Of a stretch of DNA of 64,000 nt, positions 20,826 to 64,000 are shown piece after piece. The position numbers and the translations under genes were made by a program. The first letter of the stretch is position 1; every line of letters starts with the position of its first letter. Source of the stretch: Candidatus Micrarchaeota archaeon CG10_big_fil_rev_8_21_14_0_10_45_29 (GTDB lineage: Archaea; Micrarchaeota; Micrarchaeia; Anstonellales; Anstonellaceae); the NCBI GenBank assembly GCA_002778455.1, contig PFCD01000005.1:4424-68423 (forward strand). Reading direction: 5' to 3'. Below the pieces are notes generated by a model. The model was not told where the DNA came from. It made no database searches and saw only the letters and a list, made by a program, of their open reading frames with translations.

Positions 20826-20896
20826 AGCGCATGCTTTTTATAACCTGCCCAAACTTTTCATATTTGTTTATAATCTTTCAATTCCTCTCTATTTTC

Positions 20897-31746: not shown

Positions 31747-32040
31747 ACCCCTCTCAAAACACCCGTGTTCGCACATAATGCTCGCGGTTGCCCGCTCGCA
31801 TTATGCGCTCACCTTCTTTACGCATATCACCAGAACAAGGCGCAGCCCCTTATCCAATTATGCCAAGCTTCCCCAAAACCCAATCCTTATTCTGGCAAAT
31901 TTTCGGTAAAATTCTGGCAAATGTTAAAAAAGGGCGGATTTGTTCTATCTCTATGGCAGTGTTTGGGGATGCTGCCGCCATTTGCGAATAAAAAGCATCC
32001 TCATAATTTTTATGTTGTTTTTGTTTTACAGGTATTTTAT

Positions 32041-32769: not shown

Positions 32770-32778
32770 GTGATTTTT

Positions 32779-43090: not shown

Positions 43091-43873
43091 TCAATCCACC
43101 AAAATGGTGTATTTGCTGATATAAATTTGCGCCAGCATAACAATCAAATAAGGCAATATAATAAGCGAATTGAATGCAAGCACAATCCATGATGCAACAA
43201 AGTGCACGTTAAAGGGCAACACATTGTCAAGCAGCCCGAACACAAAAAACAAAATAAAGTCAAGCACGCTCAGAAGAATAAGCGCAACCACAATCCATTC
43301 AAAGACAGCGCGCGGGCTTTTTGCAACCACTCTCAAGCCCCTTTGCAACGCCCTAAAGGCCCTCACATCATCCATCACAAGCGCCGCAGGCATCAAAAGA
43401 AGCCCAAGCCCGACAACAAAATTAAGAATCGGCGCAAGCACTGCCTGCGCATTATATTCATACGCAACAACCTGGATAATGAGCAAAATCATCGTAGCGC
43501 TCAAAAACACCACAAACACCGAATTCGTCATCTGTGCAATGGATTTTATTACTTCCATCTCCAATCTGCGCAAAGTCCTCTGCCTTTTCACAACCAAATT
43601 TATGCCGACAATTGCAAAGCTCATCAAATAAAGAGAAATCAAAAATGACACTCCCATCACAACCACGTCGATTGTGGAGAGGTCCACAATGCTCATGGTG
43701 CGCAAATAAGTGGCGCCAAGTGAAATATATATGGGGTCCGCAGTATTGAGGGCGCTCACAATAAGGGGTATCACAAGCCCCAAAAGCCCGGGCACAGCCG
43801 CAAGCACCAAAAGAGCGAAATTTTTGCGGTAAATGTCCCACGTGTATTTTAAAAGGGATTTTCTTTTATCCAT
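43091..43873 (-). CDS. Hypothetical polytopic membrane protein
   Basis: About 6 hydrophobic helices, with GAGGGG upstream. Confidence 0.75.
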   Translation of the reverse strand: MDKRKSLLKYTWDIYRKNFALLVLAAVPGLLGLVIPLIVSALNTADPIYISLGATYLRTMSIVDLSTIDVVVMGVSFLISLYLMSFAIVGINLVVKRQRTLRRLEMEVIKSIAQMTNSVFVVFLSATMILLIIQVVAYEYNAQAVLAPILNFVVGLGLLLMPAALVMDDVRAFRALQRGLRVVAKSPRAVFEWIVVALILLSVLDFILFFVFGLLDNVLPFNVHFVASWIVLAFNSLIILPYLIVMLAQIYISKYTILVD

Positions 43874-48223: not shown

Positions 48224-48805
48224 CTAAGTTTCCCTCAAAAGGGTTGCCAACTGCCAGTCATTCTCAAACATTTGCGCATATTCGCGCACCGCCTCCCCCT
48301 CTATAACCGCCCCGGCTTCCCTATTGCTATCAACCGCCGATTTTGAGAAATTAATCGAGCCCACAAGCGCCCTCTTCCCGTCCAAGAGCATCATCTTGGA
48401 ATGCGTAAGCTTAAACCCGGCAGATGCCCACCTCACAAGCACCCCTCCCTCAACAAGCGCCCCTGAAATTTCATCCAAATTATAAGAATTAACCCTTCCT
48501 TCCAAAATAACCCTCACTCTCACTCCCCTGCCGGCAGCCGTCACAAGCTCGCGCGCAATTTCCTCATTTGTAAATACATACATCTGGACATCTATGCTCT
48601 CTTGCGCAGAGCGTATCATTCCTATTATTTCCCCAGAGCTTCCGGGGGAAAAAACAGGCTCCACCTGCGCGCATCCCTCATTTTCAAAAAAAGAAACCCC
48701 TTGCCCGGAAAAAGAAAATTCCTGAGGAAAAAAAGAGGCTATAAAAAGAAAAATAATGGCACATGCGGCAATTCCGCCAAAAAACCCCCTCATCAAATCC
48801 TGCAT
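48224..48805 (-). CDS. Membrane-anchored phospholipase D-family protein with one HKD motif (Nuc endonuclease-like)
   Basis: N-terminal TM, AQESIDVQMYVFT, RGVRVRVI, THSKMMLLDG (HxKxxxxD), GSINFS, NRE. Confidence 0.88.
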   Translation of the reverse strand: MQDLMRGFFGGIAACAIIFLFIASFFPQEFSFSGQGVSFFENEGCAQVEPVFSPGSSGEIIGMIRSAQESIDVQMYVFTNEEIARELVTAAGRGVRVRVILEGRVNSYNLDEISGALVEGGVLVRWASAGFKLTHSKMMLLDGKRALVGSINFSKSAVDSNREAGAVIEGEAVREYAQMFENDWQLATLLRET

Positions 48806-48901: not shown

Positions 48902-49942
48902 TTATATGAGCTTTATAAGCCCCCGCCCCACCTCATTCAAATCCGCCCCAAAGAGGGCGCCTGTCTGGCGTATGAAAGTAAATGTAATAATAAGCGAGAC
49001 CATCGGCAAAAACAGCGCCTGCATATAAAAGAGGGGCAAAAAGTTTTTTGCCTTCTCTATAAATTCACTGATTTCCCCAGAGCTTCCCTGCACGCTTGCA
49101 GAAGCTATTATCATATCCGCCGAATCAAAGCCCCCCTCATACCTCTCAACATCCAAAAGAGCCGGGGGGGCAAATGTTGTGCAAAAAGAGCTTCCCGGAG
49201 GCTGAAGCGTCATCAGCATTGCAATTGTAATCGGATATACTGCAAAAAACCCGAATCCCATTGCAAGCAGCATTCCGCCCGCGCCTCTTGTAAATGGCAG
49301 TATTCTTAGCACAAGCCCAAGCTGTATAAGCACCGGCCCGACATACTTTATCAAAGAGAGAAAATTTATCTGCAGCCAGTGAAGAAGCAGCAGGAAATTT
49401 ATATGCCCTGCCAAATATTCCAAAAAGCTTGAATAAACCGTGCTATACCATCCGCCAACCATCTCCACTCCCAGCGTTTCGGTCTTTAGCGCCCCGATAA
49501 ACTTATAGAAAAAGTTTATGGCATACGCCACCCTGTAAATTATTATCTCACAGTCAATCATCGTCTCCTTCAAAAACACCTGCGCAAAAACAAATGGGTC
49601 AAAGCGCGCCCCCGCGCTATGCCCTGCGGCAAACGCGGGATAAGCCAAATACATCTCAGATGCCACATCCACCATCGTATTCCATGCCAAATTCATAAGA
49701 AGCACAAGCGCCCAAACAAGCAGAAACGTCACTATTACCTGCATGTATTCCCCTCTTGCCCATGCGCGCAAAGAAGGAATGTTAAATGAAATTCCTGCCA
49801 TATGCACAAGCACGACAATAAATAGCGCGGCAAGCCCCAGCACAGGTATGTTATTGCTCCACGCAACCCAGCTTTGGCTGTTCATAATCTGCTGCAAGAA
49901 AGCATCGTTTGCAACCACACTAGCCGTTGAATACATTAGCAA
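48902..49942 (-). CDS. Polytopic membrane protein, paralog 6 of 6 in the array (CedA/VirB6-like core)
   Basis: AWARGEYMQ; LGLVLRILPFTRGAGGMLLAMGFGFFAVYP; C-terminal FLPMVSL...FGADL...LIKLI. Confidence 0.8.
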   Translation of the reverse strand: MLMYSTASVVANDAFLQQIMNSQSWVAWSNNIPVLGLAALFIVVLVHMAGISFNIPSLRAWARGEYMQVIVTFLLVWALVLLMNLAWNTMVDVASEMYLAYPAFAAGHSAGARFDPFVFAQVFLKETMIDCEIIIYRVAYAINFFYKFIGALKTETLGVEMVGGWYSTVYSSFLEYLAGHINFLLLLHWLQINFLSLIKYVGPVLIQLGLVLRILPFTRGAGGMLLAMGFGFFAVYPITIAMLMTLQPPGSSFCTTFAPPALLDVERYEGGFDSADMIIASASVQGSSGEISEFIEKAKNFLPLFYMQALFLPMVSLIITFTFIRQTGALFGADLNEVGRGLIKLI

Positions 49943-49989
49943 ATTCCCCCCGCATTTTCCTCATCATTATTTATTATAAGCATACCCAC

Positions 49990-51225
49990 TCAAACCATCC
50001 TCGTCAAATTCGTCAAATCCATCTGCGTTCCCAGCGCGTGCGTAAGCTCTCTTGCAATCTCAATATATACTATAAAATTAATTATAGGCAAAAGCACTCC
50101 CGCAATCATATACATCATAACCGCCTGATAAGGCCAAATAACAACCGCGCCAAGCCTGTCTATGCCGCCTGATGCAAAATTTGTAAGCGGGTTTTCCCCG
50201 GGCTTGCTTTCAGTGAAATATTTTGCCACTTTTGCAGGGTCTGTATCAGCACTCTGTTGCAGCTGCCCGTCCGCACCTGCCTTCGGATCATAAAGCTTCC
50301 CAAACCCCTCACTTATGTTTGTAGCAGTTGCGGAAGGATATATTGTCTGCCCCTCAATCTGCGCCGCAGTTTGCGAATTGCTATCTATTAAATTAATCTG
50401 CTGCCCCCCCACCTGCCGGGTTATCCCCTCAAGCGAGGAATAAACTATCGCATCATTTAGCATGAGGGTTATGGGAAAGAAAAACATCGAGGCTATCGCA
50501 AGCCCCATCACCGCGCCCCCGAATTCGCGGGTAGGCAGAAAAGTGCGCAAAAGAAGCCCAAGCGGCAAAAAGAAATATGGCATGGAAAGAAAAAAGAAAT
50601 CCAGCACCCTCATCTGCACCAATATGCTCAAATAAGAGAGGGTAAAAGCGCTTATGGCAACCATAAAAATATTCATAAGCTGCTGAAAGCCTGCCAGCGG
50701 CTCAAGCGCGTAGCCTATTCCCATCGGGCTTGAATTCCAAGTCACCTTAAATATGTATGAGAGCGCATAATTTATGGCAATTAGCGCCTGGTATATATCA
50801 TCTCCTCTGGTTTTGACTTTTTTCAAATACCCCTGCGCAACGCAATAAGGGCTCACTTCCGCCGTTCCGGCAGAGGCAACATTAGTGGCATCCATGCAGT
50901 TTTGCATTATTTCCTGCCCGTGCGCCCCTCCATAATAATCCGGCGCAAGAAAAGAGACGTCCCAGTGGCACATGCCCCACATCCAGCCCATCACAAACAT
51001 CGCAAGAATTGCGGTCGCAACAATCTGGAAAAACTCAAAGCGCGCCCATGCCTGCAATTTGGGGATTCTTAGCGCGTTTGCGGCCATAAACACCGCAACC
51101 ACTCCCAAAGACATTGCAAAAAGGGATATAAACACAAGATAAAACCAGTTTCCGCCCACTATGTTATTCAGGCTCCAGTCGCTAAGAGCCGAGTCCAGCG
51201 AAATGCAATAATTTGGTATGTCCAT
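49990..51225 (-). CDS. Polytopic membrane protein, paralog 5 of 6 (CedA/VirB6-like core)
   Basis: AWARFEFFQ; LPLGLLLRTFLPTREFGGAVMGLAIASMFFFP; C-terminal LLPIIN...LGTQMDLTNLTRMV. Confidence 0.8.
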   Translation of the reverse strand: MDIPNYCISLDSALSDWSLNNIVGGNWFYLVFISLFAMSLGVVAVFMAANALRIPKLQAWARFEFFQIVATAILAMFVMGWMWGMCHWDVSFLAPDYYGGAHGQEIMQNCMDATNVASAGTAEVSPYCVAQGYLKKVKTRGDDIYQALIAINYALSYIFKVTWNSSPMGIGYALEPLAGFQQLMNIFMVAISAFTLSYLSILVQMRVLDFFFLSMPYFFLPLGLLLRTFLPTREFGGAVMGLAIASMFFFPITLMLNDAIVYSSLEGITRQVGGQQINLIDSNSQTAAQIEGQTIYPSATATNISEGFGKLYDPKAGADGQLQQSADTDPAKVAKYFTESKPGENPLTNFASGGIDRLGAVVIWPYQAVMMYMIAGVLLPIINFIVYIEIARELTHALGTQMDLTNLTRMV

Positions 51226-51234
51226 TTTTTATCC

Positions 51235-52503
51235 CTAAAATATTTTCTCAAAGGCGCTAAGGTCAATCTCGGTGCCAAGGAATTTCGTAATCTCCTTTAT
51301 TGCCGTCAGCGTAATAAATATGTTGAAAAGCGGCATTATTACAGACACTATAAGCGTGTAAAATAAAGTGGCTTTTAGCAATGAGAGGAAAAACACTATT
51401 ATAAACACAAAAATAAACGTGGAAGGAATAGAGCCTGTAAGAAATGTAAGCCCGCCCAATAATAGCAGGCTTCCAACTCCTGAATTATTGATGCTTTTCT
51501 CAATAAAATTAAGGCTCTCAACCCCTATGAGCCTGAAAAAGCATTTTATGCTCTCCCCCTGCCCGGCGGTGGAATCTGTGCATGAGCGCATATCTGTAAA
51601 TTCCGAGCCCAAATTGTTTGCATACACCCCTCCTCCTGCGAAAGTGGCCTCAAGGTAATTCTCAAAAGCAATCGCATTCAAATTAAGCACAAACGGGTAA
51701 ACAAAGTAAAACCCAATCGCTATTGCTATGAGCACATTGCCAAGCCTTGCATAGCCAAACGCCTTCATCAAAAGCCCTGGGGGCATAAGGGTTGCCATAA
51801 GCCGCTGCTGCACAAACAAAAGTATCCACAATTGCGCAAACCATGTGCCCACCGACACCGCCAGCATGGATAGCATTATTCCAAGCGAGTCAAATACGGG
51901 GCGAAACGCGGGCGCAAGAGAAAACGAAATTCCGATAACTCCGGCAGGCCTAAAATACGGTGTAATATTCCCTACAGTGGACAATATTGCAGTCAGCGTA
52001 GTCATGCTCAAAAATTCATAAATAATAGTGTTTCTCACGGTTTCTGCAAAATTTATCGCGTTTGTTATCTGCAAAAACCCTATTCCCATAAAGCTTGATG
52101 GCGCATTCTCAATTAACACAAAAGCCGCGGCAGAAATCGCAAGTATTATAGCCGACTGCCCCGCTCCGTTCATAAGCCCCCTTCCCCACGTGCTTATCCT
52201 TGGCCCAAAAAGCCCTGCAAACATTTCCGAGAGCCCGCCCAGCAGAAAGACGATAAAAAGCGCGATAAATGAGAGCACCACCCATCCATAATCCGGAGCC
52301 CTCACATCCCCGGCATCAATTCCCGGAGTAGGCGCCCAGAAATCCTTGAAAAGCAAATCAGGCACAAGCCAGCCCATAATTCCCTCATCGGCTGCGGCAT
52401 GCACAGGGGGCGCAAGAAACATCGGCACAATTAAAACAGCCAAAACAATAACCGCTGAGGCAACCGCCCCCGCCCTATTAATATGCAATTTATTTTCTTT
52501 CAT
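51235..52503 (-). CDS. Polytopic membrane protein, paralog 4 of 6 (CedA/VirB6-like core)
   Basis: Signal-like N-terminus; TWGRG; MPPGLLMKAFGYARLGNVLIAIAIGFYFVYP; C-terminal IMPLFN...LGTEIDLSAFEKIF. Confidence 0.8.
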   Translation of the reverse strand: MKENKLHINRAGAVASAVIVLAVLIVPMFLAPPVHAAADEGIMGWLVPDLLFKDFWAPTPGIDAGDVRAPDYGWVVLSFIALFIVFLLGGLSEMFAGLFGPRISTWGRGLMNGAGQSAIILAISAAAFVLIENAPSSFMGIGFLQITNAINFAETVRNTIIYEFLSMTTLTAILSTVGNITPYFRPAGVIGISFSLAPAFRPVFDSLGIMLSMLAVSVGTWFAQLWILLFVQQRLMATLMPPGLLMKAFGYARLGNVLIAIAIGFYFVYPFVLNLNAIAFENYLEATFAGGGVYANNLGSEFTDMRSCTDSTAGQGESIKCFFRLIGVESLNFIEKSINNSGVGSLLLLGGLTFLTGSIPSTFIFVFIIVFFLSLLKATLFYTLIVSVIMPLFNIFITLTAIKEITKFLGTEIDLSAFEKIF

Positions 52504-54084
52504 CTATATCAACCTGCTAAGCCCTGCAATCTCAATATCTCCCCCAAGCGTTGGCGAGAGAACCTTTATTGAAGATAATGTAACCATCAACGAAATAAAG
52601 GGCGCAAGAAGGCTGAACATAAAAAGCTTAGACATATTATCTATTGTCCCGTTTTTTCCAAGCAGCTCGTCCGTTGCAAATGCGCGCGATATTCCTCCCC
52701 TATAAGCCTCAATAAGCCTGTTATACCATGCATCCCTCTGCTTTGAGAGGATTGCGGCAGATTCCTCATCTGTCCCTGTTTTCTCAAAGCACACGCCTGC
52801 GATAACCTGCGCTTCCCTCGCAATTCTCTCTTCCCCGTTTGCGCTGCTTGCCAAATACTTCCTAAACTCATTCCCGAACGCCCCGTAATAATCATCAACG
52901 CAAACACAGTTGTTTGTGTCGCACACCTTTCCTACAGAACATGAGAAAGAGCCATTATGCGCGCTCATGCTATTTGCAACAACAGGCGCATCCGCATTTT
53001 CATTGCATTGCTCCCACGGCTCAATTTTCCCGTTCGCGCAATAATCAATCATCTTTTGCCCGTCATAGCCCTGCCCCCAGCCGCTTATTGTTTTTCCAAT
53101 CCCTGAAATATTCACCGGCCGCACCACTGCAGGCGTCACGCCCTCAAAATTCACATCTGTTTGCATAATGGACAGCCCTATTTGCGTTGCATCTGCCCCA
53201 ACCCACGGGCCTGTGAAAGAGAAAAGCACCGATGCCCAAAACACATACATCATCGGAAACACCAAATAAAAGCAAATGCCAATCGCTATTAAAAGCCCGC
53301 CCAGCTTTCGCGTGAAATAAAACATCCTAAAGAAAATTCCGGCGCACAAAAAGAACGGGAAAAACGCAAGATGCCAAAAATCAATCAAAAATTGCTGCGC
53401 CCGTATCACAAGCAAATTTTTCATAAGCAAATCAAATGCAAAGCTTAGCGTTTCCACAACAGGCGTAAGCCCCGCAAACGGGGACACCGAGAGCGCCCCG
53501 CCCGGCGCAGGAGTGCCTTTGAACCCAAGCCCCATGCTTGAGAGCACATACAAGAAAGACTCATACCTTACAATAGATGTTGCCTGCCCCTGCGTCGCCT
53601 TTGCAAGTATTTGCAGATAATCCTCGGCAATTCTTATGTGGCAGGGCCTATCCACTCCCGGCACATTGCAGCTTAAATCAACCCACGCGCCCCATGCCTG
53701 CCCTTCATTTCCCGCAAAAGTAATTGCAGGCAAAGTTGCGCTAAGCATTTGCACCTGCGATATCAAAATCGCGACACACACGAAAATAATTGCAGAATAC
53801 GCAATCTGCAAAAGCTCTGCCTTTACCCAAACCTTAATTTTGTCATCTGTTGCAAAGCTTGCATACAGCCAGGCAAGCACATAAATTCCTATCCCTATCC
53901 CGAATGCTGAGAGCATGGGCGCCTGCCATGCGCCCCACCACTCGCTAAATTTACTCATTATCCCCCCATAATCCGAAGCTCCCGCGCTTCCAACGCACCC
54001 TGAGAGGAAAATAAATGGCAATATTAGCACTAATGCAAATGCGCGCAACGCAAAACCTTTTTCCTGTTTATTTTCCACCGTCAT
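52504..54084 (-). CDS. Polytopic membrane protein, paralog 3 of 6, with lipobox-like N-terminus and Cys-rich loop
   Basis: FLSGC; VWVKAELLQ; AGIFFRMFYFTRKLGGLLIAIGICFYLVFP; CANGKIEPWEQC...CSVGKVCDTNNCVC; C-terminal LGGDIEIAGLSRLI. Confidence 0.8.
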   Translation of the reverse strand: MTVENKQEKGFALRAFALVLILPFIFLSGCVGSAGASDYGGIMSKFSEWWGAWQAPMLSAFGIGIGIYVLAWLYASFATDDKIKVWVKAELLQIAYSAIIFVCVAILISQVQMLSATLPAITFAGNEGQAWGAWVDLSCNVPGVDRPCHIRIAEDYLQILAKATQGQATSIVRYESFLYVLSSMGLGFKGTPAPGGALSVSPFAGLTPVVETLSFAFDLLMKNLLVIRAQQFLIDFWHLAFFPFFLCAGIFFRMFYFTRKLGGLLIAIGICFYLVFPMMYVFWASVLFSFTGPWVGADATQIGLSIMQTDVNFEGVTPAVVRPVNISGIGKTISGWGQGYDGQKMIDYCANGKIEPWEQCNENADAPVVANSMSAHNGSFSCSVGKVCDTNNCVCVDDYYGAFGNEFRKYLASSANGEERIAREAQVIAGVCFEKTGTDEESAAILSKQRDAWYNRLIEAYRGGISRAFATDELLGKNGTIDNMSKLFMFSLLAPFISLMVTLSSIKVLSPTLGGDIEIAGLSRLI

Positions 54085-54090
54085 ATTAAC

Positions 54091-55164
54091 CTATTCCAAT
54101 TTATTTGAGAAAAACTTTGTTCCGGCTTTTACAAACGTCACCACAAGCACCATGTTAAGCGCCGGCAAAAATACCGACTGCATCACAATATATGAAAGAT
54201 GCTTTGTAAACCCTCCCGCGCCTATGAAATCCTCTTTTAATTTGGGAAGAAGCTGCAATGATATGCTATCATACACCGCCCCCGCCCCGAAAACATAATC
54301 TGCCCTGTCCCAATTTTCTTTTCCGCTGCACATGGGATACCCGAAATCATCCTGATACATCTTATACATCACCTGCGCGTTTATCATATATGAGAAAGGC
54401 AAAATAAAATAAAACGCAAACGCAGTTGCAATCAAAAATCCCCCGGCATCGCGCGTGGGCGCAAACACCCTCATCAAAATTCCGGCAGGCAGCACAAGTG
54501 CAAGCGCAGTTGCATGCACTATCTCAAGCCCCACCTGCTGTGCAAAAAGGCTTGCGGTAAAGGGGGTAATAAACATAAGTATCAAATCAATCGAGCGCTC
54601 AATAACATCAAAACCCGGAAACGCTGGAAACGAGAAGCCCCAGCCGTATGTGGCTGCATAAAACCTTGCCTTCATCCCTGCAAGGTATTGCGCCCCCATT
54701 TTCATTCCCTCAAGCTTTAGCGTAGTGGCGCTTGAGACGCAAATCATCCTGTTAAGGTAATTGTGGGTAACATCAAACGCCCCCATCCCCCCGACGCCGG
54801 TAGTTTTTTGCACATAGTCGCCCACAACAGCATCTGCCGCAACCGCGCCAGCAAACAAAAGAAGCCCTATAAGCACGCTGATTATTCCCTGAAAAATTTC
54901 CGTCTTTGCAAACGCCTCCCATTCCGGGTTTTTTAGCGCCTGGGACGCCATATACACAAGCGAGGCGGCAAAAGCCATCATCGCAAGCCCAAGCGTAATA
55001 ATGTTTATTATCGGCGTATATTCGCTAATCGCAAATATATTTCCTCCCGCAATGGGCGCAATGCCCGCATCCTGCGCAAACAAAAAGCCGCAAAGCGCCA
55101 AGGCTGGCAAAACAAGCGCAAAGCACAACAATGCAAATTTTTTATTTTCCATTTCTTCTGCCAT
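54091..55164 (-). CDS. Polytopic membrane protein, paralog 2 of 6 (CedA/VirB6-like core)
   Basis: AFAKTEIFQ; LPAGILMRVFAPTRDAGGFLIATAFAFYFILP; C-terminal FLPALN. Confidence 0.8.
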   Translation of the reverse strand: MAEEMENKKFALLCFALVLPALALCGFLFAQDAGIAPIAGGNIFAISEYTPIINIITLGLAMMAFAASLVYMASQALKNPEWEAFAKTEIFQGIISVLIGLLLFAGAVAADAVVGDYVQKTTGVGGMGAFDVTHNYLNRMICVSSATTLKLEGMKMGAQYLAGMKARFYAATYGWGFSFPAFPGFDVIERSIDLILMFITPFTASLFAQQVGLEIVHATALALVLPAGILMRVFAPTRDAGGFLIATAFAFYFILPFSYMINAQVMYKMYQDDFGYPMCSGKENWDRADYVFGAGAVYDSISLQLLPKLKEDFIGAGGFTKHLSYIVMQSVFLPALNMVLVVTFVKAGTKFFSNKLE

Positions 55165-55195
55165 TTTTTATTTTTTCATACTTTTTCCCGCCGCA

Positions 55196-56662
55196 TCATA
55201 TCAATTTGCTCATTCCAAACACCCTCGGCTCCCCGCCTATTGCCAAACTGATGTCTTTGAACATTGTAATAGAAATAACTATTGAATTTGCCAAAAACAG
55301 CAAATTAAGCACAAACCAGCTCATGCTTGCGGTAAACTCATCAACCATCGCCTCAAAAAAATACTCTGTAGGCAAAATAGGGCCGGTAATCCCTTCAAAA
55401 TTAATCATATATTTTGCAACAATAGGCACGTTTTTCCCAAATGCATCCGCAAGCGCATTTCCCTGGCTTGCAGGAAGCTGCACATCAACGCTATACTTTG
55501 AATTCGGGTCGCTCCCGTCCCATGCCCCCAGCACAACCCCTGTTGTCTCTTTTGTTTCCTGCTCAAATTCAATAAGCTGCCCCTTTACTCTCTCAACATA
55601 TTCGCTCTGGCTCTCCCCCGCTCCCGGCTTGCAAATATCAAGCAGTGAATGGTAATTTGTCCAGTTTATCAGCTCATCCGCGCCAATGCTAAAGTAAATC
55701 TGCTCATTTATCCATATGCTCATAGGATACACAAAATACATCACAAGCGCTATTGCGATAAGGGTGGCGCCCGTCTTTCTCAAAAAAGGTATTGCCCTAA
55801 AGCCCACTCCAAGAGGCAAAAATACCGCCAACGCGCTAGTGTAGACAAATTGAAGCAGCACCTTTTGCGCAACAATAGAGCCAACTCCCATTCCCACCAA
55901 ATCCGTAATCATAATCATTGCCTCGGAAATCGGCGTCAGCCCCGCATTTGGCGCCATGTCAAGGGAAATTGAGCTGATAAGCGGCTCAGGCAAATAGGCG
56001 CTTACCCCGAAAGTGGAAAGCGTGCCAAGCATAAACTCAAGAGAGAAAAGCCCCACATAAATATTCATCATATGCCCAAGCATCACGCCAGAACTTCTCC
56101 CCGTGTCCTTGTCATCCCATTGAAGCTCATACAGGCTTGCCACATCCTCATCAGGCCCTGCTTCCATAAGATTTTTCACATATTTGTCTTTCTCAAGCGG
56201 CATGCAGCCCAAGAACCAGTCAACATTTGCAAAAAGAAGGGTTTGAGGCCGCTCATTTATCGTATTCATCTTATACACTGTGGCACTGTCCTCGCAAATC
56301 ATTATAGGCACATTAGGCTGGCTGTCCAAAAGCTTTGAGGTTGCAACGTTTTTTGCAAATTCCCCGTATGCCGCCAATCCTCCGGCTATTAGCACCACTA
56401 TAATTATGGTGGCGGCAAGCTCATACAACTCCTGCTTTGCAAACGCCTTTATGGCAGGAATATTTGTCACTTCTCCAGCCATAAAAGAAAAGGCAACAAA
56501 AAGCACCCCTATCATAAGCCCTGCAAAAACCAGCGTAGCATCCTTTGCAAGCGAAAAAGAGGCGCTTGAGCCTGCGCTCGCGGACCAAACAGATGCAGTT
56601 ATGGCAACAATCGCAACTAAAGCAATAAATGCCCTAAAATTTTGCCCCACCATCACATTCAC
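55196..56662 (-). CDS. Polytopic membrane protein, paralog 1 of 6 (CedA/VirB6-like core)
   Basis: AFAKQELYE; LPLGVGFRAIPFLRKTGATLIAIALVMYFVYP; C-terminal IGGEPRVFGMSKLI. Confidence 0.8.
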   Translation of the reverse strand: MNVMVGQNFRAFIALVAIVAITASVWSASAGSSASFSLAKDATLVFAGLMIGVLFVAFSFMAGEVTNIPAIKAFAKQELYELAATIIIVVLIAGGLAAYGEFAKNVATSKLLDSQPNVPIMICEDSATVYKMNTINERPQTLLFANVDWFLGCMPLEKDKYVKNLMEAGPDEDVASLYELQWDDKDTGRSSGVMLGHMMNIYVGLFSLEFMLGTLSTFGVSAYLPEPLISSISLDMAPNAGLTPISEAMIMITDLVGMGVGSIVAQKVLLQFVYTSALAVFLPLGVGFRAIPFLRKTGATLIAIALVMYFVYPMSIWINEQIYFSIGADELINWTNYHSLLDICKPGAGESQSEYVERVKGQLIEFEQETKETTGVVLGAWDGSDPNSKYSVDVQLPASQGNALADAFGKNVPIVAKYMINFEGITGPILPTEYFFEAMVDEFTASMSWFVLNLLFLANSIVISITMFKDISLAIGGEPRVFGMSKLI

Positions 56663-56794
56663 TTAACCTCTGTTTGCTTTTAAATCATTCCGAACCGCGG
56701 AAAGAGGGAGTTTTACCCCCTCTTTTATTTATGTTTCACCCTTATTTTTCATCACTTAAAATCATTTATAAATACCCTGCCCCTAAATTCTAAC
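56663..56794. promoter_or_regulatory. Divergent promoter region
   Basis: 132-bp AT-rich gap with TTTATAAA (56765-56772) about 25 nt before the GTG at 56795, TTTTAAA near 56678, and an inverted repeat AAAGAGGGAG/CCCCCTCTTT at 56701-56725. Confidence 0.5.
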
Positions 56795-59700
56795 GTGAAA
56801 GCGCAAATACTTGCACTGGCATGCCTACTGATATTGCTATCTCCCCTCTACGCCCAAGCCGCGCAAGACACAACATCCGCCGCCTCCCAAGCGCTCTCAA
56901 CAAATTTTCTGGACGACCAATATTCCTCCAACATACAATTTGACCTCTCCAATTTTGCAATCGGGGGCGATATGGCAATAAACGCAACCTATAAGGAAAT
57001 AAGCTTATACAATACCGGAGGAATAATAGACAACAAGCAAAGCATCACCACTATAAAAATAGCAAAAAAAGCATTGGTAAGCTTTTACATAGACAACGAA
57101 ACAATCCCCATAACCGACTCAACAGGAAAGCCGATTTGCCAAAACCTTCTCACAGACAAGAATGGGCGCGCCTCATGCAATATCGCCTATGCCAAAAACC
57201 CCTCCGGCGCAGGCGCGCTTGCAATCCAAAGCTGGCCGCATCCGCGCCCGATTTTAATAGCAAAGCTTCACTCCTCGCTTGAAAACCAGAAAATAAAGCC
57301 ATCTATGGCATCAATTCCCCTCTGGACAAAGGACTCCTACAACCCGGTAATATTTCGCGCATTCTCAAGCGCGATAAACGGGCAAAGCATTTTCCTCTGC
57401 ATTCCCATCATCGTGGTATTCGGACTGCTTCTTGCCTCAATGCAATACCACGGGCACAACCCCCTATCGCTCTTTGACATCACCGTGCCGCGCATGCCAA
57501 ACATAAAAAAAGTAAGAATGAAATCCCCCGCCGTGCCTGTGCACCTTGCAATGAAGGGGCGCCTCTCCGCCCGCCTCATGGGGCGCACCGAGAAAGGAAT
57601 ATCCTCGCAGATAACCTCGCTTTACAAAAAAAACAAAAAAGATTCGCGCAACATAAAAAAGGAAATAGACGCGCTTTTCCCAAGAAGAAAAATAGTAAGA
57701 AAAGCCGGCGCGTTCGGCAAGGAAGAGGCATATCAGGCAGCGCTCGCCCGCCTCAAAAAACTAATAGATGAATCCGGAGCATCCGAGAAGGACCGCAACC
57801 GCGCATATGCAAACGCCCGACGCCTTATGGAAGTGCGCGAGGTGCTGGCGCTCGATGACAAGGTAACCGGCGCGGCAAGAGGGGGGCAATACAAGCACCC
57901 AGGCAAAATAAACCCTGTAATAGATTACGCAGCAACCCGCCTTGCAAAGCCCTGGAAGCTTATACCATCAATCGCAAAGCAGGAATGGGCAGACAACCTG
58001 CCCGGGCTTCCCTATGTTGAGCGCGCGGGGATTGTTGCGCAAGGATGGCTTGCAGGGCGCGCGGGAAACTTAAGGATGCGCCGCTCGCTCTACAAATCTT
58101 TGGCAGCAGAATCCGCCCTGGCGCTCGGGCTTGCAAGCCGAGAGAGCAAATTCATAAAAGCAAATATTTTCGAGGAAAAAAAGCTTGGCGAAATTCCGAG
58201 AATAGTTGAGAAGATGCGCCAGGAATCCTACCAGCTTGCGCGCGCTCTCATGGATGAGCATCTGCGCACCCTAACATTAGGCATAGTGCTAAGGCAAAAA
58301 AACAAGGACGGCGCGCCCGAGCTTTTAATGGATAAAAAAAGCCTGGAATATGTAAAAAAGCTTGAGCAGCAAATTCGCGCAGAAATAGAGCGGAAAGTCG
58401 CTTCAGGGCAAATACTAAAGGAATTCGCAGAATATTATTTTAAAGAGAAAATGATGATTCAGCTTGCAGATTATATAAAGAAAAACAACATCTCTTTGCA
58501 AGACGTAACCGGGCAAGCGCTTAGCAAGCAGGAGCTTCAGGATTTCCTTGTCTCTGCAAAGCTTTACGCGACAAAAGTGCGCGAGCTTCTTGTAGAGGAC
58601 GGCTTGAGCGCCGGGGGCGGGCGCTACCCCGACCTTACGTCCGAGCAGGCAAAAAGAATGGACCCAAACCAGGTTTACAGGCGCTACACAGAATTAATAG
58701 GAATACTCGACAATATCTCAAAAGACACTTTGGGGAAAGGAAGGCTCCCCCTTGTGATGCTTGGGCATGATTTGGCAGAAATTTTCGGCAAAGCCGTGGA
58801 TATGCGCCGCCTGCGCGGGGAAATCTCCGCAGACGATGCAACAAAAATGCAGCTTATTCGCGTATATATGGAAACCGAGCTTGTGAAAAAGCAACTCTAT
58901 GACTATATAATATCCAACCGCTCGCTTGCAAGCATGGATAAGCCGCAGCTGGAACCCCTGCTTGGCAGCGGGCTTCTCAACTCCAAATGGCTCAAAGCGC
59001 TTGAGGATGCCACCAAAATGCAAAAAGTGCTTGAGCCGCTTAACTACACTTTGCGAGGCGAAGCCGCATCAAGAAATTTCCTAACCTCTTTTTATGCCCA
59101 CGACACTCCGTATGCAGTAGAGCTTGAGAAAAACAAAATAAGGGTGTTGCGCGAGCTTTTCACCTACCAATTTGACCGCGGGTTTGAAGACCTTTTCAAA
59201 AATTATGATTTGCAGGTAAGCAAAAATTTAATGACTTACCATTCAATGAAATCCCTTATCTCCCATTACATGGACGGGGCGCAATGGAATGCAGAAAATT
59301 ACAACGCATGGCTCAAAAAAGGCGCGACATACGGGGACATAAGAAAAGGGGTATGGATAATAGACGCCAACCACAACATCCTGCCATTTGCATCAGGCTT
59401 CAAATTCGACGGGCAGGGGCGGGCGGCGGAGGCGTATGCAAAATTCAAAAACGGGCATCTTACATATGATCACACCACCTTCGGCCTTATGGGCTCCGAC
59501 TATGCACAGCGCCCAATAAACGCAACTTTAATGTTCAAAAACCCGCAAGGCAACTGGAAGGCAGGCACCTCCGCAGACGCGCAAACAGACAAAATATTAA
59601 CTCAGCTAAAGCAATACCATTTTGCCCTCTCCTCCTCCACCTATGGCGGAAAGCTTCTTTTCTCAGGCTATTCTTCTGACGGGAAAACCCCTGCAGGCAT

Positions 59701-62275
59701 TCAGGAGGCAGGGCTCTCAAGAAAAGACATCATGAAAAACATAGAAACTTTGCAAAAATCCTTAGGAGAGAGAATGCGCCTTGTCACCCGCGCATCGCTT
59801 GAGGATGACCCCTCGCACAACTCGCTTTTGCGCTCATGGTATAAGGCAACAAACTTTGTAGAAAGGGTAACGCGCGGAGGCATAAACGACCTTGACATGC
59901 GGTTGCAGGAATGGTATGCGTCCCAAACATATGCGCGCATGGTTCTCTCAACATATGAGAGCGACATGAAAAAAGGCATATTCTACTCTGATGAGACGCA
60001 AAAATCCCTCACCTCAAAAGAAGAGCTAAATGAAATGCGCAAACAGCAGATAGAGCTTATGAAAAACCCGCACCTGGGCGCGGATGAGCGCGCACGCCTC
60101 TCCCGCCTCACCAATGTGGAAATTCCGGCGCAAATTACCGCTGTGCGCACAAATGAGCAGATGGCAAGAAAAATGCAGCGCGAACTTGGATGGGTTGACA
60201 GGCATCTTAAAAGCCTTGAGGTTTATGGCATGTTTTACAATGTGGCGGAAAACACCGTCATGAGAGACCCGCGCATCACATTCGGAAATTCATGGGGGCT
60301 GGGCCCTGCGCTGCAATCCGGTTACCACTCAGGGCAATTCGTAGGCGAGCACCCCCAGATGTGGGCAGGCTACCATCTTCTTCCAGGGGACAGATTAATG
60401 AATTTCTTTGCGCGCCCCTCTTACTGGGCAGCATCCGCCTTTGCTCTTCACACCCGCACATTTTTCACAAAGATGACCGGCTATGCAACGGTTTATCACC
60501 AAGACCCTGAATACGGCTTTGACAAGCAGGGCGCCCCAAGCTCGCACGAGCCATCCGTAGTGGAAGCAATACAATCCCTTTTCAAGCCAACCACAAGCTT
60601 TGACTGGCTATCGCGCACCTTTTTGCGCCCAATGGTGCGCCGCCCCTCCGACTACACCGATGAATTCGGCGTGCGCCTGCGCGAGGACAGTGTTGTGGGA
60701 ATGCGCTATAGAATGCCCCTCTCATTCAAATTCTCTGACATTCAGGGAAAGAACGCCGATTCCTTTGGAATAGATGATGCGCGCTTTAAGCAAATTGGCA
60801 CAGGCGCCGCAGATGAGATGAGGCGAAGAAAATTCGGGCTCACATTCCGCGAGGAATTCATGATGTGGAATAAGCGCTATGACGCGCAAATGCAGACAAG
60901 CTCGCACGAGATGATGGATTCGCTAAAATCCCACCTCGCATCCGCCACAAGTGCGCAGGAGAGGCAGATGATACGCGCGCAAATGCAGGAAGTGCGCGAC
61001 ATTTACCACACAGCAGAGAGGGCGGCGTGGAAAATTCCTATTGTGCGCGACTTTGCGCGCCAAGGGTATTATGCTGTGGAAAACCGCTCAGGCTATGACA
61101 TAAACACAATCGGAGGAGTGCACCGTGGCTATGAATTATCAGGCCCATGGCACAAAACAATTGCAAAAGCGCCGATTCCGGGAATGATTTGGACTGATTG
61201 GGAAGGGCGCGCACAGCCATACGGCTATGTAACAAACACAATTTTCAACAATTTGCAGGATTCCGGAAAAATAAAAGACAGCGGGCTTGCGCAAATGCTT
61301 CGCAACATCTCTCCTGAGAGGCGCGAGCTTGCATCAGCCTCATTTAGCGAGGAGGATGCAAACGATTATATGCTAAAAAGCGGGCTGGGGCGCCACCTTG
61401 CCTCAGACTCCTTGCGAGACCTATACAAAAACGAAACCCCTGTCATCCTTGAGTTTGAAAAAGTTGAGCGGCAAAAGCAGCAATTCCAGTATTCAAACTC
61501 ACCTTATATTTTCCCAATAGCCCCGGCGTATGTGCTTGCATACCAGATGTTTAAAAAATCCGCATATGGAAGAAGCCAGCCATGGTCATCAACTCAGGCG
61601 CGCCCCACAGACAGCGCAATAACTCCCCAGCAGGATGCAGAGCATGCGCAAATGATGCATGCAAGGCAAATGGCTATCGCCTCTGCTTCACAAACCTACT
61701 CCTGCCCGGCGCACGGCATAACTTTGCAAACAGGGCAGCAATGCCCGCTTTGCGCAAGCAGCGAGGAAAGAAAGCTTCATGCCCAGGATTCGCGCCTAAA
61801 GCAGTCCGCAAGAAAATCCTACGAGCTTGCAAAAAACTGGGCTCTCTCTGCCGCCTCTTTGGGTGGCACTATTCCCATCGGAAATTATAACCAATATTTC
61901 AACTCAGCCCGCTGCCCCCATCACGGCATTCCCTTTGAGAGGGGCACAGTATGCCCCATGTGCCTTGAAAACCAGGTAAAAACAGTTGAGGGCTTCAGCC
62001 ACGAGGCTGCGCGCGAATACCAGCGCAAGCTAAAAGATTATATGCGCGAGATAAACCGCACTGCCCGCGACCGCCACCTTGATGAAGAGCAAAGAAACAA
62101 GGAAATATTGCGCCTTATGCGCGAGCGCGATGAATATGACAAATTCCAGCAAGGGCAAATAAGCCGCGACAAGCGCCTTGGCTACAGCGAATCCTATGTC
62201 TTTTTGCAAAACCAGATAAAAACGATTGCAGAGAACGACAAAAAATACCGCTACACTCTAAAATTTGAAAAATAA
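56795..62275 (+). CDS. Giant (1826 aa) single-pass membrane protein of unknown function with two C-terminal CPxHG...CPxC motifs
   Basis: Signal peptide, about 180-aa beta-rich ectodomain, TM IFLCIPIIVVFGLLLASM, basic helical remainder, CPAHG...CPLC and CPHHG...CPMC. Confidence 0.85.
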   Translation: MKAQILALACLLILLSPLYAQAAQDTTSAASQALSTNFLDDQYSSNIQFDLSNFAIGGDMAINATYKEISLYNTGGIIDNKQSITTIKIAKKALVSFYIDNETIPITDSTGKPICQNLLTDKNGRASCNIAYAKNPSGAGALAIQSWPHPRPILIAKLHSSLENQKIKPSMASIPLWTKDSYNPVIFRAFSSAINGQSIFLCIPIIVVFGLLLASMQYHGHNPLSLFDITVPRMPNIKKVRMKSPAVPVHLAMKGRLSARLMGRTEKGISSQITSLYKKNKKDSRNIKKEIDALFPRRKIVRKAGAFGKEEAYQAALARLKKLIDESGASEKDRNRAYANARRLMEVREVLALDDKVTGAARGGQYKHPGKINPVIDYAATRLAKPWKLIPSIAKQEWADNLPGLPYVERAGIVAQGWLAGRAGNLRMRRSLYKSLAAESALALGLASRESKFIKANIFEEKKLGEIPRIVEKMRQESYQLARALMDEHLRTLTLGIVLRQKNKDGAPELLMDKKSLEYVKKLEQQIRAEIERKVASGQILKEFAEYYFKEKMMIQLADYIKKNNISLQDVTGQALSKQELQDFLVSAKLYATKVRELLVEDGLSAGGGRYPDLTSEQAKRMDPNQVYRRYTELIGILDNISKDTLGKGRLPLVMLGHDLAEIFGKAVDMRRLRGEISADDATKMQLIRVYMETELVKKQLYDYIISNRSLASMDKPQLEPLLGSGLLNSKWLKALEDATKMQKVLEPLNYTLRGEAASRNFLTSFYAHDTPYAVELEKNKIRVLRELFTYQFDRGFEDLFKNYDLQVSKNLMTYHSMKSLISHYMDGAQWNAENYNAWLKKGATYGDIRKGVWIIDANHNILPFASGFKFDGQGRAAEAYAKFKNGHLTYDHTTFGLMGSDYAQRPINATLMFKNPQGNWKAGTSADAQTDKILTQLKQYHFALSSSTYGGKLLFSGYSSDGKTPAGIQEAGLSRKDIMKNIETLQKSLGERMRLVTRASLEDDPSHNSLLRSWYKATNFVERVTRGGINDLDMRLQEWYASQTYARMVLSTYESDMKKGIFYSDETQKSLTSKEELNEMRKQQIELMKNPHLGADERARLSRLTNVEIPAQITAVRTNEQMARKMQRELGWVDRHLKSLEVYGMFYNVAENTVMRDPRITFGNSWGLGPALQSGYHSGQFVGEHPQMWAGYHLLPGDRLMNFFARPSYWAASAFALHTRTFFTKMTGYATVYHQDPEYGFDKQGAPSSHEPSVVEAIQSLFKPTTSFDWLSRTFLRPMVRRPSDYTDEFGVRLREDSVVGMRYRMPLSFKFSDIQGKNADSFGIDDARFKQIGTGAADEMRRRKFGLTFREEFMMWNKRYDAQMQTSSHEMMDSLKSHLASATSAQERQMIRAQMQEVRDIYHTAERAAWKIPIVRDFARQGYYAVENRSGYDINTIGGVHRGYELSGPWHKTIAKAPIPGMIWTDWEGRAQPYGYVTNTIFNNLQDSGKIKDSGLAQMLRNISPERRELASASFSEEDANDYMLKSGLGRHLASDSLRDLYKNETPVILEFEKVERQKQQFQYSNSPYIFPIAPAYVLAYQMFKKSAYGRSQPWSSTQARPTDSAITPQQDAEHAQMMHARQMAIASASQTYSCPAHGITLQTGQQCPLCASSEERKLHAQDSRLKQSARKSYELAKNWALSAASLGGTIPIGNYNQYFNSARCPHHGIPFERGTVCPMCLENQVKTVEGFSHEAAREYQRKLKDYMREINRTARDRHLDEEQRNKEILRLMRERDEYDKFQQGQISRDKRLGYSESYVFLQNQIKTIAENDKKYRYTLKFEK

Positions 62276-62307: not shown

Positions 62308-64000
62308 ATGAAAAACGCGCTATTTATAGCTTTGGCATTGTTTTGCATTATCCTTCTTTTCGGATGCATACATCCGGGCACACTGGGCGCCCAAGACCGC
62401 TTTAATTCCAAAACAACAATTAATGTCTCGCAAAAAACAAATCTTGAGCCTGCATCAGATTCCGCCACACCCTGCACCTGCATGATATGCTCTCAGGAAG
62501 AGCCATCTATTTTTGATGAGATTTGGTATGCATTAGGAATACAGGATAAATTAATAGAAAATGATTTGCAGGGCGCCAACTGCTATTTTGAAGCATGCAA
62601 CTCCTCAATTTACGCCTCTCTTCTCTCAGAATTTGATGCGGGAAAAGGGGTATGGGCGCAGTGCCCGCAAGACGCCTCCTCTTCCTCTTCAGGCAATTCG
62701 CAAAACAAATATGATGATAAGGTATGCGCCCCCCGCTACTTTATGCTGGGGCAGGGCGCCTCTTCCGCAGAATTTTCCCTTGCACAAAGATATTGCTCAG
62801 GACGGCTTAACATGCCGATAATTTGGGCATATTCCAAGGACGGCAAGGAGCCGCCCAAGCCCCCCTCTCCCCAAACCTTAATGTGCCATCTCTCAAAAAG
62901 CCAGATGCCTTTTGTAATATGGTATAGCAACGCCGAGCATATTGATGATGAGGCATACAAAAAAATGGTTGACTCTTACAATGATGCAACAGATGACCCG
63001 CCAACAGAAGGGCCGATAATGCTAAGCACAGAGGCTTTGCTTGAGCCTTACAAAACAAACGCAAAAGGCGAGAAATTCCTTAACATTCAAATGCTTGAGA
63101 AAGTGCGCGCGCAAATAGATTACACTGCCCTCAACTGCCCCTCCTGCATTCCCGTGCTTGCCCTCAAGCCAACCTTTACAACCGACGGCTTGCCTGATTT
63201 GTGCCCAATAGACTATTTCCTGCGCTTTAACACCTCTCTTGCGGATTTGGGGGGAGACCCGCTCAACTGCTCATCAAAATACGAGAACCCGTCCCAATAT
63301 TCCTCACGCCCCGCAACCCGCGAGAATTACCTAAAAAAAATAGGGGCAATCGGAATAGCTTTTATTGCAAATGAAAACGCAAACCTCACCACCTGCACCC
63401 CTATGTATGATATCGCGCGCCATCTGCGCTATTCTGATGAGCTTTTATTGCATTACCACTCTCCTTCTGTTTGGTATGCAGTCGGAATTTCCCCAGGCGC
63501 CACAAACACCCCCAACTGCGCATTTAGCGAGGCGGAAGTGGCGGATGCGTATAGCTTTTTGATGGCAGGAATACCCGGCTTTGTCGCAAGCGGGGTAATA
63601 GGCGTCTCGCCCTACACATTTCTTTCCTCAACCGCGCCTCTTCCATGCAAAAGCCAGCTCTCTTACGGCTCTTTAGACTATGCCGCTTTCTCCTCAATAG
63701 GGGCAAATAAAAAATTCACCACTTTGCAAGGGGCTCAAATAAACTCAACAAAAGTATTTTTCAAAAACGACACACACCTCTCTTTTCAGGATGAATTTTC
63801 AAACTACTATATCGCATATTATGATGAGCCAACATTCTCCTTTATGCTCAACCTCACAGGATGCAACTTCGGCTTTAGGCAAACTGACGGCTCTATGCAA
63901 AACCTCACCTCTTTCTCCTGGTTTTCTGCCTGCCAGCTATACTTTACAAACAACGCGCCCCTATTTGAGGCAGACATATCCTCAATTTCGCAAATTCGCG
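62308..64000 (+). CDS. Large Cys-rich lipoprotein of unknown function, 3' truncated by window edge (more than 564 aa)
   Basis: Manually translated from MKNALFIALALFCIILLFGC (lipobox-like FGC). The frame has no stop to the window end, so the ORF track missed it. Confidence 0.85.
   Translation, partial: MKNALFIALALFCIILLFGCIHPGTLGAQDRFNSKTTINVSQKTNLEPASDSATPCTCMICSQEEPSIFDEIWYALGIQDKLIENDLQGANCYFEACNSSIYASLLSEFDAGKGVWAQCPQDASSSSSGNSQNKYDDKVCAPRYFMLGQGASSAEFSLAQRYCSGRLNMPIIWAYSKDGKEPPKPPSPQTLMCHLSKSQMPFVIWYSNAEHIDDEAYKKMVDSYNDATDDPPTEGPIMLSTEALLEPYKTNAKGEKFLNIQMLEKVRAQIDYTALNCPSCIPVLALKPTFTTDGLPDLCPIDYFLRFNTSLADLGGDPLNCSSKYENPSQYSSRPATRENYLKKIGAIGIAFIANENANLTTCTPMYDIARHLRYSDELLLHYHSPSVWYAVGISPGATNTPNCAFSEAEVADAYSFLMAGIPGFVASGVIGVSPYTFLSSTAPLPCKSQLSYGSLDYAAFSSIGANKKFTTLQGAQINSTKVFFKNDTHLSFQDEFSNYYIAYYDEPTFSFMLNLTGCNFGFRQTDGSMQNLTSFSWFSACQLYFTNNAPLFEADISSISQIR

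Follow-up and report, generated by a model that had tools for sequence, protein, structure and literature searches.

A giant membrane protein of Micrarchaeota with a small predicted ectodomain and a large predicted cytoplasmic body, encoded beside an array of polytopic membrane proteins and a Cys-rich lipoprotein

The window analysed here is a stretch of 64,000 nucleotides (contig PFCD01000005.1, positions 4,424 to 68,423) from a groundwater member of the Micrarchaeota (DPANN), whose genome comprises 1.15 Mb in 20 contigs with an estimated completeness of 84.65 %; the window lies in a contig of 106 kb, C19. Below, G000 denotes this genome, C5, C7, C8 and C19 its contigs, and further G and L numbers other genomes and loci. 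The window encodes a giant protein of 1826 amino acids (aa) (P0001; 56795..62275, plus strand, stop codon included), divergent from six genes for paralogous polytopic membrane proteins and followed by a gene for a Cys-rich secreted protein. The giant gene is intact and opens with GTG, and the list of open reading frames (ORFs) contained no other long frame at this position. A TATA-like box, TTTATAAATA (56765..56774, plus strand), ends 20 nt upstream of the GTG. Leaderless archaeal mRNAs have this spacing between box and start, thus the gap fits a leaderless transcript and GTG as start codon. The giant gene and its nearest array gene, mp1, diverge from an intergenic region of 132 bp, in which an inverted repeat AGAGGG-n9-CCCTCT (56700-56733) is followed by a T-rich run and could, judged by its sequence, be an operator or a terminator-like element. 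The giant gene was wholly or partly present in five public groundwater or aquifer DNA runs, one of which may be the source sample; no RNA run was among the listed public runs carrying it.

A hydropathy scan of the giant protein (sliding window 19) revealed only two hydrophobic peaks, at residues 5-23 and 198-216. The first belongs to a signal peptide or N-terminal hydrophobic segment (residues 1-23; 56795..56863, plus strand, as for all parts of this gene) with an AQA-type site, YAQA/AQ. The predicted extracellular part spans only residues 24-197 and holds one domain of about 140 aa, an Ig-like or macroglobulin-like beta-sandwich with the conserved pair C115/C128 (residues 41-181; 56915..57337). 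The second peak is the single transmembrane (TM) helix (residues 198-220; 57386..57454) with conserved C202, G210, L211/L212, A214, M216 and Y218. Directly after this helix follows the segment GHNPLSLFDITVPRMP, the juxtamembrane (JM) motif G-x-NPLSLFDITxPRxP..KKVRMK (residues 220-245; 57452..57529). The remainder of the protein contains an all-alpha region (residues 246-850; 57530..59344), a small beta-rich domain with invariant W854, I856, P864, S901, Y903, R906 and N909 (residues 854-923; 59354..59563) and a conserved core (residues 1141-1480; 60215..61234) with the motifs E1152, MRDPR (1156-1160), GYxxGQFVxE (1176-1185), RSGYD (1431-1435) and HR (1443-1444). Near the C-terminus are two Zn-knuckle-like motifs, C1637-x2-H1640-x9-C1650-x2-C1653 (61703..61753; exactly CPAHG-x8-CPLC) and C1707-x2-H1710-x9-C1720-x2-C1723 (61913..61963; exactly CPHHG-x8-CPMC), and the protein ends in charged helices (residues 1736-1817; 62000..62245), with 24 K+R and 19 D+E in the final 101 residues.

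The charge distribution bears on the topology. Residues 201-300 contain 20 K+R versus 5 D+E, and the whole part behind the TM helix 241 K+R versus 189 D+E; by the positive-inside rule, this excess assigns the post-TM part to the cytoplasm. All Cys residues fall in the signal peptide (10), the ectodomain (115, 128), the TM helix (202) or one of the Zn-knuckle-like motifs (1637, 1650, 1653, 1707, 1720, 1723); the stretch of 1400 residues that separates the TM helix from the first of these motifs is free of Cys. Signal peptide, positive-inside rule and Cys distribution agree and support a protein with a small part outside and about 1600 residues inside. A preliminary description, made from the letters and translated frames of this DNA, had proposed this arrangement, and the Ig-like nature of the ectodomain is in line with it. 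The signal peptide, the small ectodomain with a Cys pair, the single TM helix, the juxtamembrane segment, the body of about 1600 aa, the twin CPxHG-x8-CPxC motifs and the charged C-terminal coiled coil named there were all found again, the last as long helices in the predicted structure. The absence of a Walker motif, also claimed there, has to be qualified: the pattern [AG]x4GK[ST] matched once, GYSSDGKT at residue 958. This match was read as chance, being placed in a linker that is variable and gapped in the alignment and is modelled with a predicted local distance difference test score (pLDDT) below 50.

Structure prediction with AlphaFold 2 (AF2) was carried out on two pieces, for which 37 and 45 relatives had been aligned, and structure searches were made with the whole halves 1-960 and 961-1826. 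The first half reached a mean pLDDT of 81.1 and a predicted template modelling score (pTM) of 0.67, the second 81.3 and 0.73. These pTM values over 860-960 residues argue for compact folds and not for a fibre. The predicted order of domains was the all-alpha region, in blocks mostly of pLDDT 80-98, the strands of the small beta domain, a long helical hairpin at about 1010-1131, a mixed core (pLDDT about 75-95 in the conserved stretch), two short hairpins and terminal helices, the latter three in number and located at 776-798, 804-824 and 837-857 of the second piece. The ligand pattern of a Zn ribbon or knuckle, C-x2-H-x9-C-x2-C, occurs twice, and at both sites the model shows a pair of short strands in a beta-hairpin. 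The pLDDT fell below 50 at residues 225-240 of the JM peptide, which would accord with a segment that acquires its fold on binding a partner. In Foldseek searches neither half matched the PDB at E<=0.001, and the best BFVD match had an E of 8.3e-3 and a TM-score of 0.10; residues 1130-1600 had no usable match in the ESM Atlas. VIA-align recognised in the N-terminal half only the Ig-like ectodomain, whose neighbours include Ig domains of adhesins, and a helical bundle. Both halves were thus confidently modelled, and their predicted folds matched nothing beyond generic elements.

The giant family is restricted to its lineage. In a whole-genome search all 41 genomes of the order, G000 among them, gave a match, and each genome of the order has one or two copies of the family. 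From 5.8 billion proteins, 12 of similar length were returned; all of them belong to Micrarchaeota or to uncultured archaea and are unnamed or 'hypothetical'. When 1.84 billion cluster representatives were scanned exhaustively with HMMER, with residues 160-1359 as query, 76 proteins emerged at E<=0.001, of which 43 reached E<=1e-10 and 21 reached E<=1e-30; the majority are 1400-2400 aa long, with the match beginning at about residue 160-250. The TM-JM region was detected in 55 of 151 genomes of the phylum, which belong to all or most families of its own order and to three other families. Pfam offered only VPS51_Exo84_N (E 0.039), under its cut-off, and NCBIfam no match; neither the giant protein nor its neighbours matched a PHROG family, and a PDB profile search with the 45-sequence alignment gave nothing below E 0.13.

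An alignment of 11 homologues (32-49 % identity) showed C128, C202 and all eight ligands of the Zn motifs to be invariant, as were G220, P223, L226, D228, I229, T230, P232 and P235 of the JM motif; since these features are conserved across relatives, they are not products of chance. Matches to separate pieces of the protein were unequally distributed among 79 collected relatives: 26 matched the ectodomain (1-197), 74 the piece from the TM helix to the linker (198-960), 22 the piece 961-1140, 45 the first part of the conserved core (1141-1320), 28 the piece 1321-1600 and 20 the end with Zn motifs and coiled coil (1601-1826). In distant relatives the matched stretch was about residues 190-300. 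The TM helix with the JM peptide is hence the most widely conserved module of the family, and the counts define a family core of this module plus the block 1141-1480. Across 45 sequences R1157 and Y1177 of the block were invariant, and E1152, D1158, R1160, Q1181, E1185 and R1444 were conserved in at least 90 %. The Zn motifs, in contrast to this family core, are a trait of a subfamily: among 58 full-length relatives 17 had both, 2 had one and 39 none.

The six paralogous polytopic membrane proteins occupy 48902..56662 on the minus strand, in the order mp1 (55196-56662), mp2 (54091-55164), mp3 (52504-54084), mp4 (51235-52503), mp5 (49990-51225) and mp6 (48902-49942). They share the motif LP.G..LR.F..TR..GG.LIA.A...YFVYP and a C-terminal tail LG......GL.KLI. 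A crude topology estimate gave five core TM helices, with the tail and two short K/R-rich loops facing one side, while the opposite side has two long loops that are acidic and contain Cys. Members of this family were found in 135 of the 151 genomes sampled from the phylum, a count that takes in the unpublished genome G060, typically with 7-15 copies per genome. For 33 array proteins, Pfam revealed no family common to more than one member. In a scan of the 33, CedA and CedE each matched one protein (E 0.0099), and one protein had an incidental weak match to a pilin-like family of a mycoplasma integrative and conjugative element (ICE; E 0.013). CedA and CedE are described as VirB6-like proteins with 5-7 TM helices, and CedB and CedD as VirB4-like, in a preprint (10.1101/2024.09.27.615246).

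A second array of six such genes is located in the same genome at C7:32152-50887 and is followed by a protein of 1507 aa with 79 Cys. One gene of this array contains, as a fusion or as an interruption, a domain of some 1290 aa in which there are 75 Cys, and the sequence has a run of N at 41393. Just upstream of the C7 array is a bitopic protein of 846 aa, the second-best match of the TM-JM hidden Markov model (HMM) among 7,840 ORFs (E 0.0022), in which the TM helix and a following G-x-NP motif can be aligned by eye with those of the giant protein.

The Cys-rich protein downstream of the giant gene (62308..63999, plus strand) runs off the window; its full length is 975 aa (G000:C19, L011:132-3059). 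In an alignment of ten family members an invariant G19-C20 follows the N-terminal hydrophobic stretch and resembles a lipobox. Full-length members have 834-975 aa and a conserved N-terminal domain of about 300 aa with an unrecognised fold. The C-terminal region carries the motifs E-S, G[LM]MQ and [YF]NPF[ND]; GxMQ and [YF]NPF[ND] were present in eight of ten members, including the copy of the window. Pfam SLT matched four of ten members (best E 2.2e-5), and the best PDB match of the family profile was EtgA, the lytic transglycosylase of the type III secretion system (T3SS) of enteropathogenic Escherichia coli (EPEC; E 0.0044). On sequence grounds, the family thus has a VirB1/EtgA-like SLT domain, and we read the protein as a probable lipid-anchored wall hydrolase of the secretion-system type. 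Directly behind it, past the end of the window (G000:C19, L011:3092-4150), a YkuD_2 L,D-transpeptidase-like protein (E 1.8e-15) is encoded, a second murein-type enzyme in an archaeon, which was not seen beside the gene pair in the other loci listed. Genes for a DsbA-like thioredoxin, a DsbD-type membrane protein and a thioredoxin/AhpC-like protein are located at 22663-23463, 31765-32769 and 32770-33936 of the window; an extracytoplasmic disulfide system would suit the abundance of Cys-rich secreted proteins in this genome.

Gene order was compared in 16 loci carrying a member of the giant family. Seven loci (this genome, G001, G010, G030, G005, G032 and G012) had the order of the window, array, giant gene and Cys-rich gene; in four of the six related-genome loci of this group all six array genes had one-to-one orthologues in the same order. 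Five loci (G030, G005, G039, G033 and G082) presented a second order, with 3-4 array-like genes, a larger Cys-rich secreted protein (66-92 Cys) and the giant gene, the latter coding for 1400-2030 aa with the same TM-JM module. The remaining four (G102, G088, G133 and G114), all of one family, had the pair only, with a homologue of the Cys-rich protein encoded behind the giant gene. An array thus adjoined the pair in 12 of 16 loci, and a Cys-rich secreted protein adjoined the giant gene in 16 of 16, in 11 of them as a detectable homologue of the copy in the window; it is the invariant neighbour. These data support a functional association of the giant protein with the SLT-type lipoprotein and, in most cases, with the arrays of polytopic paralogues too. 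In G030, an ORF of 920 aa without TM segments lies between the giant gene and mp1 (L015:12574-15336).

Two further genes of the neighbourhood recur elsewhere. After mp6, a PLD-family (Nuc-like) nuclease with an N-terminal hydrophobic segment is encoded (48224..48805, minus strand; PLDc_2, E 1.6e-29), and homologues were found near the giant gene in G001, G102 and G088 (loci L013, next to the cluster, L041 and L042). A protein of 260 aa with several TM helices (43091..43873, minus strand) is homologous to a protein encoded ahead of the arrays in sister orders (tblastn of L038:609-1373 to G000:C19:47523-48287, corresponding to 43100-43864 of the window, E 2e-32).

In families f13-f15 of the sister orders the six-gene array is followed by two bitopic proteins of about 275 aa, a P-loop ATPase of about 510 aa, a coiled-coil protein and a bitopic protein of about 800 aa. 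The ATPases have DUF87, AAA_10 and TraG P-loop domains. Array and ATPase were linked in this order, the array directly upstream, in six of eight sister-order genomes (G049, G068, G130, G135, G127 and G042), and an association of the arrays with an ATPase of the VirB4/CedB clade in much of the phylum is supported. The present genome has two ATPase modules, C5:2639-9168 (L039) and one on C8 (L040:5788-8866), each with a bitopic protein, a VirB4/CedB-like ATPase (C5:3469-5040 and L040:6536-8074) and a coiled-coil protein. The best NCBIfam matches of the C5 ATPase were CedD (3.4e-22), VirB4_plasma, the VirB4 of mycoplasma ICEs (3.7e-21), CedB (6.2e-20) and TraC (1.5e-18), ahead of HerA (2.4e-12). 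The C5 module also contains a protein of 203 aa with a weak 'mobilome CxxCx11CxxC' match (E 0.002) and a bitopic protein of 863 aa, and it adjoins a fragment of a BREX PglX-like methyltransferase at the contig end. A likeness of the JM peptide to the bitopic protein of about 800 aa, PLYTIDVPDFPP or MFALDIPDFPP versus NPLSLFDITVPRMP, was seen by eye only and was dropped as evidence; the TM-JM HMM had no match at E<=10 and BLAST gave an E of 36. No pilin, coupling protein (VirD4) or relaxase turned up, with no search aimed at them.

We propose, with a probability of roughly 40 %, that the giant protein is the transmembrane coupler and cytoplasmic platform of an envelope machine specific to Micrarchaeota and related to type IV secretion systems (T4SS) as well as to Ced systems. 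That the protein is real, conserved, confidently folded and placed with its small part outside and its large part inside is supported by the results above. A cleavable signal peptide would place the small, disulfide-bonded Ig-like domain outside, where it may pair with the adjacent Cys-rich lipoprotein, and the SLT-type domain of the latter would cut a glycan wall, most plausibly that of a partner cell. The one TM helix and the conserved proline-rich JM peptide, continued by the compact basic body of about 1600 residues, would dock in the membrane onto the array of proteins with about five TM helices, candidate channel subunits of the VirB6/CedA type. On the inner side the body, which in this subfamily bears the two Zn-knuckle-like motifs, may handle the cargo by organising or receiving it, and DNA would be the most likely macromolecule to be transported. 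Energy would be provided by the VirB4/CedB-like ATPase, which in this genome is encoded elsewhere. The anatomy, the indicators of topology, the conservation, the gene linkage, the SLT motifs and the family of the ATPase are observed, whereas all physical contacts of this scheme are inferred, as are the substrate, the direction in which it would be moved and the likeness of the array to VirB6; the matches to T4SS and Ced proteins are mutually consistent and each of them is weak. Of the roles offered in the preliminary description, a scaffold for the neighbouring channel is favoured by gene context only, by the array beside the gene in 12 of 16 loci, but not by the other four, and the invariant neighbour is instead the SLT-type lipoprotein, which had not been singled out. 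A nucleic-acid receptor is possible in view of the basic body and the array-ATPase link in sister orders, but the twin Zn motifs belong to a subfamily only (17 of 58 full-length relatives) and no nucleic-acid-binding fold was detected.

Several observations weigh against this proposal. With respect to the array, the link to CedA and CedE consists of single matches at E of about 0.01, TrbL (PF04610) had no match in the genome at E<=1, the array profile found nothing in the PDB, and mp3 retrieved only its own family from the ESM Atlas. In the four pair-only loci, all from genomes of one family, no array gene lay within the 20-kb stretch. The body of the giant protein showed no DNA-binding or enzymatic fold in the searches with Foldseek against PDB and BFVD or with VIA-align, and the Zn motifs, missing in 39 of 58 full-length relatives, are not central to the function of the family. 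The lipoprotein copy of the window itself had no Pfam SLT match at E<=1. Both ATPase modules of this genome lie away from the giant gene and are unlinked to either array, and in two sister-order genomes the ATPase lies 130 kb (G072) and 76 kb (G063) from the array. All family scores of the ATPase were far under the curated cut-offs, and against the PDB, HerA (6.1e-12 over about 100 residues) outranked VirB4 (1.5e-7 over about 275 residues). Finally, the sister orders with array and ATPase gave no TM-JM match (0/45 genomes in f13, 0/25 in f14 and 0/6 in f15), thus the machine evidently works there without the giant protein.

Part of these observations would suit another role, in which the giant protein only anchors or organises the surface hydrolase, for example at a site of host contact, and ties it to cytoplasmic structures without being part of a translocation channel; the adjacency of the array would then stem from envelope genes being regulated together. 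No neighbour but the lipoprotein is kept in all 16 loci, four loci do without array genes, and a large, compact, mostly helical body lacking a recognisable enzyme or nucleic-acid domain is what such an anchor could have. However, the best-conserved part is the TM helix with the cytoplasmic JM peptide and not the ectodomain, which argues for a conserved partner in the membrane or the cytoplasm, and the second TM-JM carrier stands beside the second array of the genome; we regard the anchor role as rather unlikely. Still less probable is that the cytoplasmic body is an enzyme, in which the core 1141-1480 would be a catalytic domain not yet described and its substrate would lie close to the membrane, for instance a nucleic acid, a lipid or a glycan precursor. 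Its invariant charged residues (E1152, R1157, D1158, R1160, E1185, D1435, H1443 and R1444), a conservation second in extent only to that of the TM-JM module (45 of 79 relatives) and the confident model of this region could be so explained, but the core matched nothing in Pfam, NCBIfam, the PDB or among known folds and had no usable match in the ESM Atlas, and the conserved charges would equally fit an interface with proteins or DNA. Although the protein is large and helix-rich, it is highly improbable that it serves as a tape-measure-like ruler or as an effector which the neighbouring system secretes or delivers; ruler and delivered effector had been considered in the preliminary description. 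Phage tape-measure and ejection proteins appeared among Foldseek rows at noise level (E 0.2-0.5; E>=0.3), but the predicted folds are compact, PHROG matches are lacking, the neighbours are cellular genes, and an effector would hardly have a signal peptide and a TM helix as its anchor and occur in 41 of 41 genomes of the order. The rest of the probability covers other functions.

The proposed coupler and platform invites comparison with known systems. With the archaeal Ced/Ted systems for DNA transfer and the monoderm-type (MPF-FATA) T4SS the gene set may share the paralogues of about five TM helices with their weak CedA/CedE matches, an ATPase of the HerA/VirB4 clade, best matched in NCBIfam by CedD, VirB4, CedB and TraC and operonic with the array in six of eight sister-order genomes, and a specialised lytic-transglycosylase-like protein beside the giant protein. 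VirB1 is the lytic transglycosylase associated with T4SS. The E-S, GLMQ and YNPFN-type SLT motifs, the profile match and the four Pfam SLT matches relate the lipoprotein to EtgA of the EPEC T3SS; unlike these, it is much larger, Cys-rich and lipobox-anchored, has the additional N-terminal domain and is encoded by an archaeon. Six distinct paralogues in fixed order, as present here, differ from the one VirB6 or CedA of those systems, and the ATPase is unlinked to the giant locus in this genome and scores far below the family cut-offs. We know of no bitopic component of a T4SS or Ced system with a cytoplasmic body of about 1600 aa. Neither the T4SS-related model matches nor the passages considered from 10.1101/2024.09.27.615246 contained a subunit of this kind.

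The chromosomal T4SS of Patescibacteria (PMC12102498) is likewise a divergent, VirB4-centred system present throughout a lineage of ultra-small episymbionts, and both systems appear co-opted for a symbiotic lifestyle. It differs in being bacterial, in having recognisable VirB4, VirB6, VirB3 and VirB8, and in that no giant cytoplasmic bitopic subunit is reported in the passages considered; the relation would be one of lifestyle and analogy only. With giant surface proteins of DPANN and bacteria, SPEARE proteins and adhesins of the SiiE/Bap type, the giant protein has in common its size, its standing as a lineage-restricted orphan and an extracellular Ig-like domain with adhesin Ig domains among its structural neighbours. 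Its architecture is reversed, as had been pointed out in the preliminary description: about 88 % (221-1826 of 1826) is predicted to be cytoplasmic, behind the TM helix on the positive side, and it has one Ig-like domain and no repeats. Neither the giant family nor the gene set was described in the full texts searched, a search that covered main texts and, for several papers, abstracts or passages, among them PMC11329633, PMC8975820, PMC12102498, 10.1101/2024.09.27.615246 and PMC11823120. The system is T4SS/Ced-related in our reading, and the giant protein itself has no known counterpart.

A wider version of the proposal seems doubtful to us. In it, a chromosomal machine derived from T4SS/Ced would occur nearly phylum-wide, rebuilt around a ring of six different VirB6-like subunits; giant protein and wall-cutting lipoprotein would be a module gained in one large order, the body of the former representing a fold and function class of its own, and the machine would breach the envelope of a partner cell to take up or deliver DNA or other macromolecules, as the DPANN counterpart of the T4SS that the epibiotic life of Patescibacteria requires.

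Other genes of the window include a class II ribonucleotide reductase of 1247 aa (14677-18420), whose barrel was matched in two stretches over 275-823, possibly due to an insertion, and a ThyX of 592 aa (20741-22519) with the Thy1 domain also matched in two stretches. A glycogen synthase (45632-47740; Glycogen_syn PF05693, E 5e-97) is present in this DPANN genome of 1.15 Mb. Archaeal ribosomal and tRNA-ligase genes are located near the giant locus and, together with the names given to its closest homologues, point to Micrarchaeota.

By what means DPANN archaea attach to a host cell, breach it and trade material with it is an open question. In its sections on cryo-electron tomography and proteomics, a study of one cultured Micrarchaeon names no symbiont-encoded machinery for host attachment, breach or exchange (PMC11329633). 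The present analysis defines a concrete, conserved gene set of giant protein, SLT-type lipoprotein, arrays of six paralogues and a VirB4/CedB-like ATPase module, and its confident models and sequence handles (TM-JM peptide, conserved core, Zn motifs) can be used for tomograms, proteomes and biochemistry. If the link to T4SS and Ced is true, machines of the T4SS type would reach into a second radiation of ultra-small symbionts, equipped there with a new kind of cytoplasmic subunit.

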